Positions 17,437-61,388 of a stretch of 64,000 nt of DNA are shown here, piece by piece. The notes beneath the pieces were generated by a model, which ran no database searches, had not been told where the DNA came from, and saw nothing but the letters and a program-made list of their open reading frames with translations. Source of the DNA: Kondoa subrosea (Eukaryota). Both the position numbers and the translations under genes were made by a program. The stretch spans positions 2,032,484 through 2,096,483 of the forward strand of contig BCIN01000002.1 in NCBI GenBank assembly GCA_039545335.1, read 5' to 3'. Within the stretch, counting starts at the first letter, position 1. Each line of letters starts with the position of its first letter.

Positions 17437-20400
17437 ATGCAAGGGCAATTTCCATTTTCTACACCTCTCCTCGTGCCAGCTGCTCCGCCTTACCAGCAGC
17501 AGCAGCATCAGTACCCTATTCATTATCCCCTACCTTTGCCTTTACAGGGCTCAGCTATCTCTCCATCATATACACCAACTCATACTCGGCCTCGCGGTGC
17601 TCCTGCCTTCAAGTACAGCGGAGGATTTGCTCTGCTGAAACCTAGTCAACAGAATGCTCGTCCATCCATACAGACTCCACCGCTTTACAACGCGAATCAA
17701 GCATATCAATATCCACATTCTCCTCGACCCAATATACCTGCTCAACAACCATGGTCTCCACCTATTTTCCATCCGCGCAATCCACCTATACATCAATCCT
17801 CATTTCTGTCACCACCAACATCAAGTCTAGCAAGGAGTGAATCCCCTCTGAGTTCTGTGCCGAAAAGTCCAGCTCTTTCGTCTACTGGATCTGTTACTCC
17901 AGCTAATGCCAACTATACACCGATAGGATTACCAATCAAGCCAAAGATCAAGATCAAGATGAGTGATGAGAAGTCGTTCTTGAGAAGAGAAGCGCTTGAT
18001 AAGGACGATTGGCCGATTTGGGTCATCTTGAGTCAAGGACTGGAAGTCCTGTCTAGAGAGATGCATGAAGATGAGATTGCGCGCAACGAGTAAGTTGATT
18101 TGACATAGTTTTCGCGAAGAAGCTCACAAAGTTGGCAGACTACCGAATACTGTAAGCACAAAAAGCTAGTCTCTACAGACGTTGCTGATGAGGTTTATAG
18201 ATCGAAATATATCTTCCGGGTCAGATGGGCTGGCTTGACCTACTCGAAGAGCTTTGGGACACAAGAATCGCGTCGAAGGAAGAACAGGTCGGCCTCCCGT
18301 CTTCTGCTGCCGTCATTGCTGACAGTGCTGTAGATACCTGCTGATCTGCTGAGATTCAAGCTGGACGCCTTGGTGGATGTGTCGCAGCTTTCTTCACCAG
18401 AAGAAGCTTTCCTATATACGAGTCAACCTTCGTCTCCGCTGTCTTCTAGAAATACTAATTTCCTACCAAGCTTGAACCCTTCTGCACCTGTATTCAAGCT
18501 TAAGCCTAATTTCAACCCGAATGCAGCAGCTTTCACTCCTGGTGCTCCCGCTCCTACCGTTGTAGTGGAAGAATCACCTAGAAAAGCCGCCGATCTATCG
18601 AGAGAGGAACTTGAATTTGGATTGGGCATCTCAATATCCAGAGAAGAGGAGGTAGAAGAAGATGATGGGGAAGACGAGGATGAAATGGAAACAAATCCAT
18701 CGGAAAGTGAAAGTTATCAAGACGAGGAAGAAATTTTAGCACAGATGGAAATGCTACCACCTGGACAGAAATATCAACCTCAAGATGAAGATAACGAGTC
18801 GGACGTCCGATCAACAGCGGAAGAAAGTAATAACCCTATCAAACCTCATTGGCGGAACTTCAAATTCCCCCCTACTGAGCCTCTTTCGCAGGAAGACGAT
18901 GAGGAAATGTCAGATAAAGAGAATGGAGGTCTTTCTCTTGAGAGCATCGCTCTGCCTAGGATACCGCGTCGAGGAAGTCGAGCCATTTTGATTTCCTCTA
19001 AGTTCAAGAAGACTCGACTTCTTTCTGCTGCCTCAAACGGATTCACAAACTCTGAATTTGACGAGGAGGAGGAAGAAGAAGAAAGGTCCGACGAAGATGA
19101 AAGCGACTCAGAAGTCACTACTTGGCAATTACTTTCTAACTTGCTTGATGGGAAGCTCAAGGACTTGCAGGACGATTTGACGGGCTGCTTCAACCTTACT
19201 GCTGATATGGATACTTTGAAAAGAGATGCCTTACTGGATGATCTGCTTTCGCGTGTGGAAGACAAGATGCAACATTGGGCGGAACAACATTCTCTACCCA
19301 ATCCTGATCTACAAGCTATTCCGGAAATGCTTTCTGCTCGAATGGATCTATCCTTGCAACCGATTATACATGAATTGAAGAAGGTCACTGCCAAGTCCAA
19401 TGAACGCGAGTCGCCATCACTGGCTGAGCAAACTCAAAACATAACTAAGCAATTCTTCACCGATTCTCGATGGATAGAGCATATGTCCTTAATGCAAGAT
19501 CAGTCTGCTAAATCTCAAATAGCGCAACGAGAAGCAAGCGACAAGTTGCGCCATGAAATCACTCAGCTCCTTAGCCTCTATTCGTCGAAATTGCATGAAG
19601 ATCAGTCTCTCCTCAATGAGAAGCTCACTTCTGATCTCGATACTCTCCGTTCGCTCGTCACTGAAAGTTCATCGCAAGTGCAGATTGGTCTCGACGAAAC
19701 TTCCGCTGCGTTGCTTGAAGAATCGCATACTTCGAGATCTCTTCTTCTGGAACGATTGAAAGCAGCAGATGAGAAGACCTCGAAACAAGCTAGTGAATTG
19801 CAAGCTCTGACAGCTGAATGTCTCGCATTGTCGAGTAAATACGCTTCAACGCAAGAGAAGTTGCTCGTGCAAGCTCAGACTACCGAGGGGAAGCTCAGCG
19901 ATATGGCTCGCGCGTTAGAACAGAATAATGAAAGGTAAGCTGGAATTCTGCTTCGGATGTCGGACTAAGCTGAATGCATTTACAGCTGGTCTAAACAAAT
20001 CAATCACCTGCATTCCATTATGGACACTGAAAGAGAGAAATTCGATAGGATTAGTGAAAAAAGAGATACGTTGCGGCATCAGATTGCCGATATTCAAGCG
20101 AAAGCGAGGAAAGATCAAATGATGCATGAACGAGCTGTCCAAGACCATGCAGCGCTGATGGAGCGATCTGCTGCTGCACACCAAGAGGGAGTCAAGGTGC
20201 TGAACTCTGAGAGGGAGCAGCTCAAAGCCGATTTGCAGTCTGAGCAAGCAAGATCGCAACAGCTAGAAGTAAGTCTCCAGCTTTTGGCGAGAACATGCAA
20301 ATGCTCATTGCAGATTGTAGATTGAGACTCAAAAGGCTCGAGCAGAACAGAGCACGAAGCATACTGAAGCTCTTGCTTCTCTTCAGACCCAGCTCGACGC

Positions 20401-46657: not shown

Positions 46658-48160
46658 TTAGTTGCTGATAAGAGGCGCTCTTTCGTCGTCGGAAATGACG
46701 GAAGAATCTTTGCGGAATTGAGTGGCGAGTGCTTTGAGGACTGACAAAGCAGAAACGATAGCTGCTCCCAAGGCGCTGCAACAAATGTCAAGCTTGAGAC
46801 GAATGTTGTATGAATCGACTACTTACAACCAGTGAATGAGGGCAGGGTGCCTGTAACAGGAAATTAGCGATAGTCGAGACAGGCTGTGGTGAGCTGGCGT
46901 ACCTGTGTTCTGAGAAAACACCAAACAGACCAAAGCAGATCACTGCTGCGCCTGCTACATCTCCTTGTGCGCCGTTAAAGGCGTATCCAATTGAAGTAGA
47001 CGATAGGAATGCAAGAGCGACTTCGTCTTGTGATTAGCAAAACTCTACCATATTTGAGCGCGGCACATACTGCAAACGCTGTGAATAGCCAACAATCAGA
47101 ATTTCCGCACGGAAGTCTGACGTTCGCTACTCACAATACATCAGTGAAGATCCCAGCGTGCTTGGTAGTGCTCTTTCCGAAAGCAGCGAATCCAGAAATG
47201 AACAAAAGCAAAACGCTGAACGCATGCCATAAAGAGAATGGCAGATGGACGAAGAGCTTGGTAGTGACGGCGTTGCTGGAGATGTTCTTCAGGTCGCTGT
47301 CAAGTATCAAGACATTTCCTTCAGCACCAGCAGTTGCATGAGGAGATGCTTGACTGACTAGTAGACATGGCTGATTACAAGAGCCAAGAAGATGGAAGTG
47401 ACGAAGGCCAGAATATCTATCAATCATTGCTCAGCGACGAACAAGGCCCAAAAGAAGGAAGACCTACAGTGACCGTTCGAGAAGAACCAAACGAAGATAG
47501 CGTTCAGAAGTGCGACTCCGGAGAAACGATATCCGATATGGTTGATAATTGGGCTATAGCCAGCTATTATCGTCTTTCAGCTCAGCCTTGACCAGAGGGT
47601 CGCTAGAAACGAACCTTCGAAGAACTAATCCGCCAAGGGAAATCAGCCAAATTCTAAGTAATAGAGCAGATGATGAGACATACTTGCAGGATAACATAAC
47701 CAAGCAGCAAAGCATTGATCAGAGTCCACTATAACGAAGGGCGTCTCAGCTTCCGCTCCCGACTGGAAAACCACGTCATGCGCAAAACTCACAACATAGA
47801 AGCTGTACAAGTCAAAGATGAGTCTCATACAATGCGTTCTGTACGGAAGAACCTACGTGTAAGATGCGGGCGTAATGTATGTTTCCTTGTGACCAGCAAT
47901 GCCTTCAACGGAAGAGTCTTTACCATGGATCAGCAGCTTCTTCCACCGCTTCTAACAGAGGACATACAGGTCTATCGAAAAGATCAGATTAGATCAGACT
48001 GACAGGCAGCCATTGAACAGCAGGAGCTACATTGGAACCAAAGAGGAAGACATAAGTCAAGATGTTGACTAGCTTTAAAGCGAGGTTATCAGTCCAGGCT
48101 GTGGTATCCTTCCCGCTGAGCATATATAGAATGCTACGAAGACGGATGCTCACCAGCCAT
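46658..48160 (-). CDS. Conserved fungal multi-pass membrane protein (uncharacterised; DUF1774-like by recollection)
   Basis: MA|AWTDNLALKLVNILTYVFLFGSNV...TYITPA...LFVHLPFSLWHAFSVLL...DDERAPLISN*, with several hydrophobic exons. Confidence 0.7.
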
Positions 48161-48396: not shown

Positions 48397-48960
48397 TCAG
48401 AATGCCCAATCATCTCCAGCTGAACCATAGATAGAAGAAACGGCCTTCTCCTTCCTTGCATTCAATTTCGAATTGATAGGGTTCATAGAAGATGGTTCTG
48501 GTACGTCCAACAATCCACTTCCCCAGCGATGATTTTCTACTTGAGTAGGTCTAGAAGTCCTTAATGGTGCTCTTGAGAAAGAAGAACAATCTGATAAAAC
48601 TGGTACGAAATTTGAAGGTGATGCTGTTGAAGAAGAAGAAGAGGTGTTTGATGTTGAAGAGGAAGAAGAGTTGAGTGAAAAAGGGTTGGATTCGGTACTG
48701 TTTATTGATGAAGCTGAAGAAAAGTTTCCTGTATACACATTTGATTTGTTATGAATAACGGTTGAATAGAAGGAATGTTTAATGGGAAAAAAAAACTTAC
48801 GCGAATTGAAAGCAGGCCGCGATGGAGATTGAGTTGGCATTTTATGTCTTCTTAGTTCTGCTGAAGACGCATGTTTACGTGGTGTTCCAGCTGGAGTCTT
48901 TGATTTGGAAGGAATTGGATGAGAAATTGGAATAATAGGTGCAGAGGATGAATTGCCCAT
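48397..48960 (-). CDS. Small Ser-rich hypothetical protein with an N-myristoylation-like start
   Basis: The ORF starts MGNSSS, contains a probable in-frame 72-nt intron (48729-48800) and ends SIYGSAGDDWAF*. The upstream leader is pyrimidine-rich. Confidence 0.65.
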   Translation of the reverse strand: MGNSSSAPIIPISHPIPSKSKTPAGTPRKHASSAELRRHKMPTQSPSRPAFNSRKFFFPIKHSFYSTVIHNKSNVYTGNFSSASSINSTESNPFSLNSSSSSTSNTSSSSSTASPSNFVPVLSDCSSFSRAPLRTSRPTQVENHRWGSGLLDVPEPSSMNPINSKLNARKEKAVSSIYGSAGDDWAF

Positions 48961-49882: not shown

Positions 49883-52800
49883 ATGTCTGCAGGTATGCTA
49901 GGAGTTTCCTCGAACGCAATCCTGTGTGCTCATAGGACACCACAGCCAACGATAATGTATCTGCGGGCTCTACCAGTGAGTACTTTAGCAGCTGTCAAAT
50001 CTACATTTCTAATGGAAAGCGCAGGCACCTTCATCACGGCGTAAGTCTCAGGAGAGTAGCTTGAATAAGCAGCGTCTGACTGCTGTGGACATCTAGGCTG
50101 GTTACATCTCTTATCATCTTTGGAGCATGTATGTAAAAAGCCTCAGCAGTAGTATTTTTTTGTGTTTGCTCAAAACCTCGCTTGTTATAGTGATGCTGGG
50201 TTTCCTTCTCTTCTTCAAGAAGCAAAAGAAAGTCTATCAACCTCGAAGCTATCTCGTTCCAGAAAAAGGTCGTTCCCCAGAACTGCCACATTCTATAGTG
50301 GGATGGTGGAAAACAGTGATGGCTACACCGCTGGACACGATCATTAGAACCAACGGCTTTGATTCGTATACTTTTGTTCGCTTCGTTCTCTTGCTGGTCA
50401 AAATCTGTCAGTATCTCTCTCTCACAAATGAGTTCATGCCTAACGCGTCATTCAGTCGTCCCTTATTTCTTCCTGACATGGATACTTTTGATGCCATTGG
50501 CTGCTGTCAGACCTAACGCTGGCCAAAAGCAACTCAATATGTTTACGTTTGGCAACGTCGGCAAAACAGTCCAATCTCGTTATGGTGGATATATTGTCGC
50601 TCTCTGGCTCTTGACTCTCTGGACTCTTTGGTGCATCTATACTGAAGTCCTACACTTTATCGCCGCTCGTCATTCTTTCCTATCTTCACCTCAACATGCA
50701 TCTTTGGTCCGAAGTCGAACTGTCTTGTGCTCCCAGTTGAAAGAAGATCTCATGTCTGAAAAAGCTATCAGAGAATTATGTTCACCCGCAACAGTGGAAC
50801 AAGTCTTTTTGGTCAGAAATGTCAAGGATATTGATGATGTTTATGATGAACGAGAGAAGTCTTGCACAAAGTTAGAAAAAGCTGAGGGCAAATTGCTCAA
50901 GTTGGCTACTAATAACATCAAGAAGGGTAAAGCTGCTGCTCCTTCAGCTGATAGTAAGTGATGGCTTATTGTAAACTGTATTTTCATTCTCACAATGTGC
51001 TGTCAACAGAAAAGAACCTCGAAGGTGGTGATTTGTCGCTCATCAACAGTATCGTACCAATCAAAAAGCGTCCTACCGAAAGATTGGGCAAAATTCCCTT
51101 CATTGGCAAGAAGGTCGATACCATTGAATACGAAACTCAACATATTAGAGAACAGACCGAAACGCTTGAAAAGATGAGAGCTAAATGGAATGAGAAGGAA
51201 CTTGCTAGTACCGCAATCATTCGATTCGGTTCGCAAGCGGAAGCCATCACCTTTGTTCAGAATCGATCAAAGGAAATGAAGAAGAAGATTCCTATGATTT
51301 ATGGTGATGTTGCTCCAGAAGCAATCTACTGGTTAGTCAGAGTACTGGTAAGACGAATACTCGCTGAGACGGATTATGACATTAGGCCAAACTTGGGTGT
51401 CAAGCGACCGGCTTACTTTGGACGCAAGATCATCGCCTGGTCCTTGACAATTGCTCTAATCATCTTGTGAGCTTTTACATTCGAGAAAGATGCTCATGAA
51501 CTAATATCATATTTAGCTGGGCTCCTCTGGTTGCTCTGGGTTAGTCTAAAAACGCTTTTGCTTGTCTCTCTCGCTGATGTAGCGCACAGCTGGTGCCGTT
51601 GCAAATTTGAAGACGTAAGTCGCCATGATGTCCGCTCTACATTGCTAATCTTGTGTGTTTCCTTAGATTGACCAATGTTGCACCTTTCCTATCATGGGTT
51701 AACGATCTGCCATCTGTTGTATTGGGTATTATTCAAGGTCTCCTGCCACCTCGTCAGTCCTCTCCCTTCGAATTTGCAGACATTTTTACCAATGTCTTAA
51801 TCGTGATATAGTCGTTGTTGCAATTCTTTTCATCCTTCTACCCCCGGTTCTTGGCCTCTTCTCTAAGATTCAGGGTATTCCGCTTACTACGCATATTCAC
51901 CTCTCGGTCTTCAAGCGTTATTGGCTGTTCGTGATCATCAATGGATTCCTAGTAATCACAGGTCAGTAAAGGGTTCTCGTCCGTCATTCGGAATGCTAAT
52001 TGAAATTTCTTGTGAATCGCAGCTGCGAGTGTCAGTCAAGAGTCCTCGTCAGCAATTCGGACCATAACTGATATTTCTCATGTTTAGGGTTTGGCTCCAG
52101 CTCTTTCTCAGATCTTCAGCGAGCCAGGAGGAGCTACCAATATCCCTGCCACGCTCGCTACGCAGCTTCCATCGGCTAGTATCTACTTCTTGACTTTCGG
52201 TAAGTCATGTTTCCTCAGACATGAAATACCTGCTCATGCTAGACGTTTCACCCTAGTCATCACAAGTGGTCTATCCATCGCCGGAAAGCAGCTGTCGCAA
52301 ACTATTTCAGTTGTAGTATTCAAGATCAAGACTTTGCTCGGTGTTTCTACTCCACGACAAGCGTTCCAGCTCGAATACAATTTGGCCAACACTCCTTATC
52401 TCAAAGTCTGGCCTGATGTCTCTCTTCTGGCTGTACTTGGCATTGTCTACAGTTGCATTCAGCCTGTAATTACCTTGCTTTGCCTTGTGAGCCTTACTTG
52501 ATTGTGTCCAAGGCAAGAGCTCATTCAGCGTATCACAGGTCGTCTTCTGCTTGTATTACGTTGCTTTCAAATACATGTTTGTATACGTCTACGATCAAGT
52601 GCGCTCTTTGCTCGCATCATTTTGCGATTTCAGCTGATTATTATTTGTAGCCTGATGCAGACGAGACTTGCGGTCTTTACTGGCCTCGAGCCATCAACCA
52701 TCTCTTCGTTGGCCTGTACATTCAACATATCCTTCTGGCGGCCTTGTTGTAAGTTATCTTGCTGGTCTCACTCTCCATCTCTTGGCTTATAATTCGATGC

Positions 52801-53473
52801 AGCTTCTTGGCTCAAGACGTCAGTGGGAAAGCCTCTGCTCCTGCTGAAGGTGCACTTGCTGTTGTTCTCTTGATCTTGACTATTCTCTTCCGTAGGTCAA
52901 GGCAACATTTGAGTGATGCACGCGCTAATACTTCAGGTAGACCTATATATCACCAAGCGACTCAAGCCAACTCACATATTCTTGGAAAAGTTCAATGAAA
53001 TGGACCACAGCGCTGTAGAAGAGACTGGCCGGCATGCATACAAACAAGGCGGTCGTCAAAGCAGAGGGCAGATGCTCCGTATGAATACAATGGAAAACGG
53101 CGAACGCATTGGCGGTAACCCAGCGGAACACCAAGGTAACACTGATGCAGATGATCTAGACCATGGCTTCGAGTGAGTTTTTCCCTGATTGCAGAGCACA
53201 ACAAGCTGAATCCTTTTATTAGTCCGCCTTCTACATTCCAAGGTGAACTTTTATGACATCCGGTGCTAGTACTATGCTGATGCATTCGTCACAGACCAAC
53301 CTGTCATCTGGCTTGCTGAAGATGCTCATGGATTGGCTCGCATTGAAACACACAAAATTCAACAGGGCAAAGTTGAAGCATCAATGCAAGGTGCTCAGAT
53401 GGATCAAGATGGCAAGATTCACGTCTCTCGTGGTCCTCCTGATGAAGAATGGCTTGGTGGCAGCAATCAATAG
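49883..53473 (+). CDS. OSCA/TMEM63/CSC1-family (RSN1/PHM7-like, DUF221) cation channel, about 20 introns
   Basis: TFITALVTS, VYQPRSY, NGFDSYTFVRF, SRTVL, KKVDTIEY, APEAIYW|PNL, IIQGLLPP, LATQLPSASIYFLT, GIVYSCIQP, GLYWPRAINHLFVGLY and QPVIWL. Confidence 0.93.
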
Positions 53474-57800: not shown

Positions 57801-59220
57801 TTAGCTATTGAAGCCAAAGAAGTCCGCGCCGCCTCTACTTTGAGCACCACCTCTTGGTCCTCCACGACCGCCTTTTCCACCACCACCACCTCCTCCTCCT
57901 TGACCGCCACCTGATTGAGATTGGGCCAGAGAGAATCGATCAATCAACTGTTTTTCACAAATTAGCAAGAGTCGAGACAAGATAATGGAAACCGAGCTCA
58001 CATCATTCATAGGCTGGAGTTCTTTAGTCATAGTACCAAGGTAGCTCTCCAAGAGAACATCAGAATATTCCTGTAAGAATGGACAAATTTGAATATTCCG
58101 AGGGATATGCAAATAAAGCAGTACTTGCAGTCATGAATTCTGCTCTGAACTCAGCAGAATCGGCAGTTGGCAGACTACCCATCAAAGCTGAGATTTGGCG
58201 CAAGGTTTCATGATCTTTCGGTGCAGTTCCTTAGTATCGATGCAAATGAGCAAAGTTGTCTACGAGGAATAGAAAGAAGGTCACCTTTCGACAGTCGATC
58301 AAGATACTGTGAAATGACTTGCACTCGTTCTTGTAGCATTTTCAGAGCGTTACGCTGCGTCGTCAAGCTAGTGACCACTGCTGGTTGTCATTAGAACATG
58401 CGTTGCCGCTTGCAGAAGATAGACTTACAAGTCGAATCGCCAGCTCCAGCAGAAGTGGTCTTGCTAGCATGATCAACAGCGACTCGCTCAGCTTCACCCG
58501 TTTCCACTCGGTAGGAAGCGACGATGAATTTCGTTTGAGGTGAATTGTCGACGATTTCAGTGATGGATTCGTAAATTACGATCGGAAGTTCTTTGCCATG
58601 AGAAACAGAGTCTGCAGAGAGTTGTAGAAAGAGCGGGTTTTCGTTGTAAGTCATCATCTGAGTGAAACTTCTCAGACGCGCTGGCACCAGAGAAGAAGAA
58701 GAATTGGTATACCTGTTTGTGAATGTACATGTCTTCTTCCGTTGGAGCTGCACCAACGCTGTACCATCCGAGAATCTCATACGTAGGGAAGACCTGGCTA
58801 AGATATCAGTCTGGACATCGACTTACTTGGGAACGTACTGACCTGCTTGACTGTCAATCGGAAGGCATGTCAGCAGAAGGCAGCACATAAGCATAAGATG
58901 ACCTACACTGATCTCTGCGAGTGGTAAAGAAAGCATGGTTGATGTCCAGGCTGCCGTCGGTCAAGGCGAATTCGAAAGAGTTGGTAATCTCAACCTCTCG
59001 TCCATTCTGAGTACCAATGAGTGATCCAACGACTATTGATGACATACTTCAGCTGCTGTCGAGCGCAGACGTAGTGCATTGCTTAGCTACCTCTGACAGC
59101 ATTGCTCTCTTGCTGCAGACGAGTTCGAGTTAGGTGTTCTGATGCATTCAGCAAAGGCAGAGGGTGCAAGGAGACATTCAGAGAGCTTTCTTCGGCTCTA
59201 GAGACCAGATTGGAGCTCAT
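57801..59220 (-). CDS. CSN6: COP9 signalosome subunit 6 (non-catalytic MPN)
   Basis: VSLHPLPLLNASEHLTR, VGSLIGTQNGREVEITNSFE, YNENPLFLQL, YRVETGEAERVAVDH, QRNALKMLQERV and EYSDVLLESYLG. Confidence 0.93.
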
Positions 59221-59490: not shown

Positions 59491-61388
59491 ATGCTCAAAC
59501 GACCCAAAGATCGCGGCATCGCTTCAAACAGCGAACAGCCTAAACGCGAGGACAAGTCAATCTCCCTCAAAGGCTTCTTCTCTAGCACTTCCAAACGCAG
59601 CAAGTTGGCAAGGTCAAGCTTAAGCAATGCTACGGCCGATGAACCTATACATATCACTTCACCTACTCATCCTTTGCCTCCTTTACCTTTTCATCCAAGT
59701 GTTTTACCCAGCCCTAGTCCATTGACTCGTGATCAGACATATAGAACTCAAGATTCTCCCACAGCCATTCAAAAGCAGCCGCTGATTAAAGCTCAATCTC
59801 CACCACCTTCGAATGAAGTACCAATCTTTCCTAACAATCTTTCACCACGTCCAATTATTGAACATGCTCGACCTTTCTCAGTAGACTTCACCCCTTCGCA
59901 TACTCCTAAACGCTTCTTGCTCAAAGCTAGAAGTCCTCCTTCCTCTAACAGTAATACACCTCAAACACCAATGCGTTTAGATCAAACAGCTCAAGTAGCC
60001 TTCAACGATAGTCCAACAGATCCAATGATGGGTGAACGACAAAAGAAATTGGAGAAACGTTGGTCTACTTTAGCTATGGAACAAGCTTTTGATCGAATGA
60101 AGGGTATGGTAGCGGAATCTAAAGGTCAAGATGAGAGTTTCAGCAGTATGGAAACCAACAAGGATATGAACGATTTGTCCATTGATCGTTTAGTGGATGA
60201 AGCTGGTTCTCTGGGTATTTCAATGTGAGCTTTTTGTACTTCCTATTCACACATGCGCGCAGCTCTCATGCGTCAAGTTTAGGTCCTCTTCTGCACCTAC
60301 TGTACAATTAGCCAGTCCGGCAGTGGTTCATCGCTTTCAATCGTCTGATAGAGAACTGGCTTCACCTTCTACAGCACCTTCTACTCCATTACCCACTCCA
60401 CCTTTAATTTCTCCAAGCATTAAACCAGGTCGTCGTAGTCGCGCATCTGAAATCTTCTCCGATAGACCCAAACCTTCCTTCTATTCTCCTCCTTTGGATC
60501 AATATCGGAAAAGCATTTCTTTCAGATCGGAAAGAGCTGTCAAAAGTAGAAGTTATCTTGATATGGCCGATATTTATTCTGCTCCTTTACCTATAAGATC
60601 AAGAGGAAGTTATTATGCACCTACAAACAATAGTCAACCCGAAACTCCTAGATCCGGTAGATCGACTCGGACGAACAATACTGGTAGCGCCGATAAAGTT
60701 GGCGTACGTACCGCTTCCAGTGCATCAGTTTGGATAGAGCTTGACAAATGGTCTCGGTTAGTCCCATTTGGCTATGTTGGATGCACTTTCGGAAACTCGT
60801 CAAGTTATTGTCGATCTACGCAATCAGCTAGACAAGAATAACGAGGTGATGCATCGTCTGTCAAGAATAGTTGGAAGGGACATCGAATTGGAGGATCTAC
60901 TTCATATTCTCGAGCAAGATGGACGTCATATGCAACGATTGCAAGAGATGGAGAGCGAGAAAGAAGCATTGCAAAGTAAAGTAGAACAATACGAAGAAGA
61001 AATGGTTTACCTCGGCTCACAAGTCGCTTCGCTTTCAGCTCAACTTCGTAACAAGCAAGTGCAGCAACAACAACATCAAGGTCATGATGGTCAGCGTCAT
61101 CAGCGAACAGACTCTGCAGCTTCACATTTCGAATGCTTAGATCAAGCTACAGGTATATTGGAAACCCCTTTGACAAGACAGCAACCTCGTTTTGGTTCGC
61201 CCGATACCCCTCAAGCAGCTCAATTTCGATCTTTCCACCAAGACAATCCTCTGCTCAGCCCAAATTCAATCAGCGAGTCAGCTTTCGATGAACACGTACA
61301 TCGCAATTCTGATAATTTGGCATGGCTGGGGTCAAGCGAAGGCTTATCGCAATCAGAATTCGATCGGTTCCTTTCTGAAGCACAGTAG
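59491..61388 (+). CDS. Hypothetical Pro/Ser-rich protein with a C-terminal coiled coil
   Basis: Three long, consecutive same-strand ORFs separated by intron-like segments. The start at ATG 59491 is inferred. Confidence 0.65.

Follow-up and report, generated by a model that had tools for sequence, protein, structure and literature searches.

Introns that are copies of another intron of the same gene have been described in fungi as same gene duplications (SGD); the account in PMC3609843 comprises 82 members from 24 species, half of which have duplicated exon flanks, and for the other half, which are of ordinary length and folding energy, transposition within one transcript or transfer between paralogues is put forward there as possible. 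A related system is that of the near intron pairs (NIPs) of Drosophila, which are intron positions less than 32 nt apart that are treated as mutually exclusive in one gene, and for which similarity is considered the strongest sign of a common origin (PMC2891723). PMC3609843 also cites introns of Oikopleura dioica that are almost identical to one another, and three copies from the same gene among the introns gained by Caenorhabditis elegans; at variable positions in Fusarium and Cryptococcus, Croll and McDonald report no similar introns, and they remark that adjacent gains are not explained by any general model (PMC3514964). The origin of new spliceosomal introns is still argued, and there are few cases with a source that can be named. 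Here a case is described in which the source would be the neighbouring intron. In a stretch of 64,000 nucleotides of Kondoa subrosea DNA (contig BCIN01000002.1, positions 2,032,484 to 2,096,483; “the window” below), introns 12 and 13 of a gene for an OSCA/TMEM63/CSC1-type membrane channel are paralogous and lie on either side of an exon of 8 nt. That one of them was copied from the other, by whatever route, and later than the divergence from the nearest relatives sampled, is given a probability of roughly 0.8.

The pair is best read as belonging with the non-segmental SGD, a known but sparsely documented kind. As in the cases of PMC3609843, the gene carries two introns related by copying, their flanks are unduplicated, and length and folding are ordinary. 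Within the window, and among contigs of the source sample at a likeness of at least 80%, no similar intron was found in unrelated genes. Unlike the SGD set, which was gathered with BlastN and consists of near-identical introns, the present pair is older, at 74% identity, and would probably escape that screen; furthermore, the copies here lie 8 nt apart around a microexon, in a very intron-rich basidiomycete-like fungus. With the NIPs of PMC2891723 the locus has in common that a conserved coding region holds two intron positions at a spacing below 32 nt, but in Drosophila these positions are found in different species and their coexistence is held to be very unlikely, whereas here both are present in one gene. 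The similar cases described in PMC2891723 are also read there as splice sites that migrated over a stationary sequence, whereas here there are two separate copies. The similar introns of Oikopleura dioica and Caenorhabditis elegans have likewise been taken as traces of copying, in hosts that are animals (PMC3609843). In a literature search that was not exhaustive, no description was found of paralogous introns flanking an exon of this size; the value of the case lies in its clean anatomy and in the extreme proximity of the copies.

All of the features concerned are read on the plus strand. The upstream exon (51812..51961, 150 nt) ends with the codons for V-I-T and the first base of an alanine codon. 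Intron 12 (51962..52022, 61 nt, phase 1), the first of the paralogous copies, has a GTCAGT donor, a CTAAT branch-like motif and a CAG acceptor, and is followed by the microexon CTGCGAGT (52023..52030, 8 nt), which provides the last two bases of one alanine codon, then a second alanine and a serine, and corresponds to residues 497-499 of the homologue P0001. Intron 13 (52031..52087, 57 nt, phase 0), the second copy, also has a GTCAGT donor, together with CTGAT and ATAAC branch-like motifs and a TAG acceptor; the downstream exon (52088..52199, 112 nt) starts with G-L-A-P-A-L-S. The coordinates and sequences of both introns and of the 8-nt exon are exactly those given in a preliminary description of this DNA, and the phases proposed there, 1 and 0, are borne out by spliced alignment to a homologue of 90% identity. 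Each intron has the sequence of a U2-type intron, with a consensus GT donor, a branch-like motif, a YAG acceptor and a length inside the gene's range of 49-62 nt, and because each copy keeps its own donor, branch-like motif and acceptor the two are probably removed separately, by intron definition. The DNA of the locus has the same sequence in contigs from two assemblies of the probable source sample; this confirms how the window was assembled, though it cannot count as evidence independent of the window.

It is clear that introns 12 and 13 are real, statistically secure paralogues. When the two are aligned with MAFFT, columns 1 to 53 reproduce the figures first claimed for their likeness: 39 columns match, 13 mismatch (8 by transition) and 1 holds a gap. 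The full alignment of 61 columns contains 41 matches, 16 mismatches and 4 columns with a gap, and of the 57 positions aligned by a Needleman-type method 42 are identical (~74%). The local alignment score of the pair is 24, compared to a mean of 7.3 (sd 1.55, maximum 13) for the other 189 pairs that can be formed from the 20 introns of the gene. When the GTNAGT and YAG signals are stripped the pair scores 19 and the gene's other pairs no more than 13, and a score of 19 was reached by none of 20,000 dinucleotide shuffles. The similarity is therefore significant, with the pair at the top of all 190 in the gene. It starts at the first intron base and ends at the intron borders.

The likeness also stands out at the scale of the window. 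A heuristic search of the window gave 244 candidate introns, recovering 13 of the 20 OSCA introns, and among the 29,591 pairs of these candidates just two reach a score of 19, one being introns 12 and 13 and the other a palindromic locus read on both strands. This second locus, at 47079-47144, is partly palindromic and has the GT...AG form of a short intron in both directions, reading GTGAGT...CACAG on the minus and GTGAAT...TCAG on the plus strand; the pair that it yields shares the highest score of the all-against-all comparison with introns 12 and 13. An ungapped scan of the window for direct repeats (offsets 30-600, at least 24 of 34 matches) returned six places; three were inspected, and the intron 12/13 pair is the only pair of introns among them.

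Within the gene, the claim that the remaining introns show no such likeness to one another holds good, since the 18 other adjacent pairs have a mean score of 6.56 compared to 6.65 for the 171 non-adjacent pairs (Mann-Whitney p 0.52). There is no likeness in the six adjacent OSCA pairs that are separated by exons of 32 nt or less, and no older, decayed copies stand beside the gene's other microexons. These comparisons bear upon conversion between neighbouring introns, a possibility raised in the preliminary description, by which two old and unrelated introns would have been made alike. Introns 8 nt apart are close together, and repeats in such proximity commonly undergo conversion as soon as they are homologous. 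However, prior homology is needed, and unrelated introns of 55-60 nt have none. Likeness between two unrelated introns of 60 nt is beyond the reach of gene conversion, and a duplicative origin is therefore required. The absence of likeness from all 18 of the other adjacent pairs, the six across short exons included, argues in the same direction, as does the lack of an intron at either position in 11 distant loci considered below. Conversion could have maintained the likeness, but it cannot have created the homology and is hardly credible as its origin.

The microexon is predicted from comparison with homologous proteins. Removal of both introns restores the frame and reads ...FLVITAASGLAPAL..., at a site where the homologues have ITAASGL, ITFASGL or VTLASGL and where T496, A498, S499 and G500 (P0001 numbering) are invariant in a four-sequence alignment. 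The encoded protein is colinear with the homologues P0001-P0004, with no extra, repeated or missing residue. If the 126 nt were instead removed as a single intron, a frameshift and a stop would result; a 136-nt single intron, starting at a GTAATC donor at 51952, is in frame and removes V-I-T-A-A-S, including the invariant T496, A498 and S499. Either of these alternatives would be more than twice as long as the longest other OSCA intron. It might be argued that the gene model is wrong at this point, through other splicing or because the gene is decaying, so that the likeness would be irrelevant to any microexon; an exon of 8 nt is sterically demanding, and the splicing of two introns is predicted from DNA alone in this organism. 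Nevertheless, the frame and the invariant residues are restored only by the two-intron model, the full model is an open frame of 838 codons that is 86% identical to P0001, both introns carry a consensus donor, branch-like motif and acceptor, and the sequence is the same in both source-sample assemblies, with the dependence on the window already mentioned. An error of the model here appears very improbable.

The flanks of the two introns allow larger duplications to be considered. The preliminary description held that the exon between the introns is not a copy of the end of the preceding exon and that simple tandem duplication fits poorly, and on both counts the comparison agrees: the 8-mers upstream of the two introns agree in a single position of 8, as do the microexon and the first 8 bases of the following exon, and no composite of the two flanks resembles the microexon any better (best 1/8). 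A segmental tandem duplication of 69 nt, comprising an intron and 8 exon bases and later reshaped by deletion or by shifts of splice sites, would account for the spacing of the copies at a 69-nt period, and the segmental type makes up half of the SGD known from fungi (PMC3609843). It does not fit, because the flanking exons are not duplicated and because 8 exon bases would have been added, with a shift of frame, whereas the protein has no repeated or missing residue compared to P0001-P0004 and the microexon copies neither flank nor a mixture of them. The introns are also unlike the flanking exons, and Tandem Repeats Finder (TRF) detects no tandem array at the locus at a score of at least 30 and nothing at period 69. 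An origin of the pair by segmental duplication must be regarded as highly improbable.

In the model of Rogers, a stretch of exon that contains AGGT is duplicated in tandem and thereby gives rise to an intron. That model, which is discussed in PMC2891723, is like the present case in that a local, small-scale duplication makes a new intron beside conserved coding sequence, and unlike it in that the intron there copies the adjacent exon, whereas here an intron copies the adjacent intron and resembles neither exon. When each intron was compared to the 150-nt upstream and the 112-nt downstream exon no resemblance was found, 480, 2969, 1754 and 2765 of 3000 shuffles scoring as well in the four comparisons, and a Rogers-type birth from exon sequence is not supported.

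Comparison with relatives indicates that the coding sequence was formerly uninterrupted here. The site is covered by 11 more distant loci (L003-L009 and L013-L016), none of which has an intron at either position; the 8 nt therefore formerly lay within an unbroken exon. Two contigs from closer relatives, L001 and L002, match over 840 and 839 residues without interruption; the codon stretch of the microexon is unbroken in both, and they have no introns at all. Because the match is uninterrupted and only ~100-150 nt lie outside the coding region, these contigs are most likely spliced transcripts of two related species. Whole-gene comparison of intron positions was made with five modelled distant loci (L007, L008, L009, L013 and L015), and none of the 20 positions in the window coincides exactly with one of theirs, five being within three alignment columns. 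Since there is no exact positional match to these relatives, the intron set of the OSCA gene is largely private to this lineage, which fits much intron turnover.

Two details of the exon ends were also considered. The serine codon that ends the microexon (52028-52030) is AGT in the window and TCN in 10 of the 10 relatives that have serine there. The idea that this codon was rewritten by the insertion was rejected, as 11 of 35 conserved serine columns differ in codon class between the window, L001 and L002; an AGT specific to the window occurs at 3 of these 35, and its presence beside intron 13 is probably a coincidence. A proto-splice site was likewise rejected as a clue to which intron is the younger, CAG being found at only 2 of the 20 exon ends of the gene.

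The divergence between the two introns gives some indication of the age of the copy. It amounts to K 0.32 (Jukes-Cantor, 57 positions), while between the window and L001 the synonymous sites are saturated, with an NG86 synonymous divergence (dS) of ~2.1 and differences at 61% of fourfold sites. Because 0.32 is far below ~2.1, the copy, or the last conversion or homogenisation between the copies, would be younger than the split from L001. Provided that the cores of introns drift roughly as fast as synonymous sites, it would be considerably later than the divergence from the nearest relatives sampled, and the species behind L001 and L002 would be expected to lack one of the two introns at least.

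Copying from a more distant source has also to be weighed, as the preliminary description raised the possibility of an introner-like gain; both introns would in that case come from a dispersed family, each having arisen by an insertion of its own from a master copy at another place in the genome. Introner-like elements (ILEs) occur in some fungi and decay to ordinary-looking introns, and the present pair resembles those of Dothideomycetes (PMC3609843) and the introners of Micromonas in that introns multiply as copies and then decay to ordinary introns. Introner families as described in these systems, however, number tens to thousands of copies spread over unrelated genes, with members that exceed regular introns in length and fold stably, and none of these properties was found here in the window or among contigs at least 80% alike. 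An nhmmer profile made from the pair retrieves only the two copies in the 64 kb, the next best match having an E value of 1.7, and the 244 candidate introns of the window hold no other similar pair. At a likeness of at least 80% no third copy was found in the two runs of the source sample (18.8 and 18.9 Mb), a single record out of 6171 and a single record out of 9166 being recovered, each of which covers 51900-52150. The lengths of 61 and 57 nt lie inside the range of the gene, and predicted folding is ordinary, with minimum free energies (MFE) of -9.5 and -9.7 kcal/mol (z -0.23 and -1.65). An ILE-like stable fold was rejected, since the pairing of the 5' splice site with the branch region, seen in both copies, merely reflects the complementarity of GUCAG and CUGAC. 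Finally, two independent insertions 8 nt apart would be a large coincidence. Within the window and among the contigs at least 80% alike, the introner-like origin thus found no support, and it is considered improbable.

Local copying of an intron, creating the microexon, is on the other hand supported by the significant similarity, by its limitation to the intron borders, by the colinear protein and by the intron-free distant loci. The copy would have been inserted 8 nt from its parent, in the same gene, into the continuous conserved stretch V-I-T-A-A-S-G, and the 8 nt between the two sites would thereby have become a microexon. Both copies would since have drifted to ~74% identity, each keeping its donor, branch-like motif and acceptor. 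Splicing is reversible in vitro, and in the route that is tentatively favoured, at something short of even odds, the spliceosome would reverse-splice an excised intron into another transcript of the gene, one from which the parent intron had not yet been removed, at a site close to that intron; the product would then be reverse-transcribed, and the cDNA would recombine with the gene. Reverse splicing accounts for the exact borders by mechanism, because the process handles the intron as a unit.

Alternatively, the copy may have been made at the level of DNA. A break in the exon, 8 nt downstream or upstream of the existing intron, would have been mended by templated repair that copied the neighbouring intron, through end joining of the polymerase-theta type or through template switching in replication, and selection would have kept an insertion that could be spliced out exactly. 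Templated insertions in repair copy nearby sequence, and a range of 8 nt suits such a process. Furthermore, the first 53 alignment columns show clear homology but the final 8 agree poorly, which would suit a copy that lacked the 3' end; at 52082-52094, exactly where the alignment with intron 12 fails, intron 13 closes with the six bases GTTTAG, which by eye resemble the GTTTGG of the next exon, a likeness that is not significant. For fungi, models of intron and donor duplication by double-strand break repair are discussed in PMC7138796, in work on stwintrons where small donor duplications are attributed to break repair. Set against this, the copy must begin exactly at the G of the donor and be excised exactly in frame, which only a small fraction of possible insertions would satisfy, and comparison of the flanks reveals no microhomology or filler at the junctions. 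A DNA-level copy may be regarded as possible, though doubtful; on present evidence it and reverse splicing cannot be told apart.

Several points weigh against the reading of the pair as a copy made by reverse splicing. There is no known reason why a reverse-spliced intron should insert itself as near as 8 nt to its parent, and so short a range is more typical of local DNA processes; the exact borders could also be obtained if selection filtered insertions made at the DNA level. In the MAFFT alignment the last ~8 bases of the two introns align poorly, with a 3-nt difference in length, which could mean that only the 5' 53 nt were copied. Both introns are taken to be spliced out around the 8-nt exon on the strength of homology, so that the junctions are predicted ones. 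L001 and L002, being probably transcripts, leave the polarity of the copying to deduction; its direction and time, as well as the RNA route, we infer. Lastly, gene conversion between the copies would make the estimate of age too young.

A wider proposal is that the spliceosome of this intron-dense fungus recurrently re-inserts excised introns a few bases away, yielding new introns together with the many microexons of its genome; the present pair would then be a young survivor of this process and a coexisting intermediate of “intron sliding”, in which the copy comes first and the parent is lost later. This is unlikely as it stands, but near intron positions that coexist could be the missing intermediate of intron migration. 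Whatever the mechanism, the pair would offer a testable example of intron copying within one gene, with a clean insertion into a conserved segment of a membrane channel, and of the birth of a microexon through intron insertion and not through exon shrinkage. If the genome holds more such pairs, the distribution of their spacings and borders could separate RNA-level from DNA-level mechanisms.

The host DNA is eukaryotic and its introns are very short. The coding region of the OSCA/TMEM63/CSC1-type (RSN1_7TM) channel extends over 49883..53470 of the plus strand, as placed by spliced alignment to P0001. In a banded protein-to-genome alignment of P0001 (score 3518) the gene has 20 GT-AG introns of 49-62 nt, and its exons are, in order, 10, 30, 16, 32, 216, 498, 322, 81, 23, 25, 86, 150, 8, 112, 230, 60, 98, 89, 232 and 20 nt long, followed by the last exon. 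The joined exons make up 2514 nt, or 838 codons, and are stop-free. It is a gene in which 20 introns fall within 2.5 kb of coding sequence and in which the smallest exons are of 8, 10, 16, 20, 23 and 25 nt. A protein search with a single exon gave as closest homologues P0001 (840 aa, 90% identity over that exon) and P0002 (838 aa), and in the same search two named homologues from Microbotryomycetes were found at 42%. P0001 contains the domains PF13967, PF14703, PF02714 and PF12621, and it is via this homologue that RSN1_TM, PHM7_cyt and RSN1_7TM are seen in the order that is characteristic of the OSCA/TMEM63/CSC1 family; the exons in the window match PF14703 and PF02714, the exon at 51814-51960 matching PF02714 with an E value of 7e-9.

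Some minor observations were made alongside these. The partial homologue P0005 (270 aa) has an extra stretch between ...FFAPL and VALAGAV that is absent from the other homologues; this stretch resembles an intron read through in frame and lies near the position of intron 8 or 9 of the window gene. The scan for direct repeats also returned two places, 57838-57912 and 60285-60399, which are coding-like repeats rich in Pro, Ser and Thr with offsets of 36 and 81 nt, and three places of low 3-mer diversity (0.40-0.63), which lie at 18642-19107 and 48644-48733.

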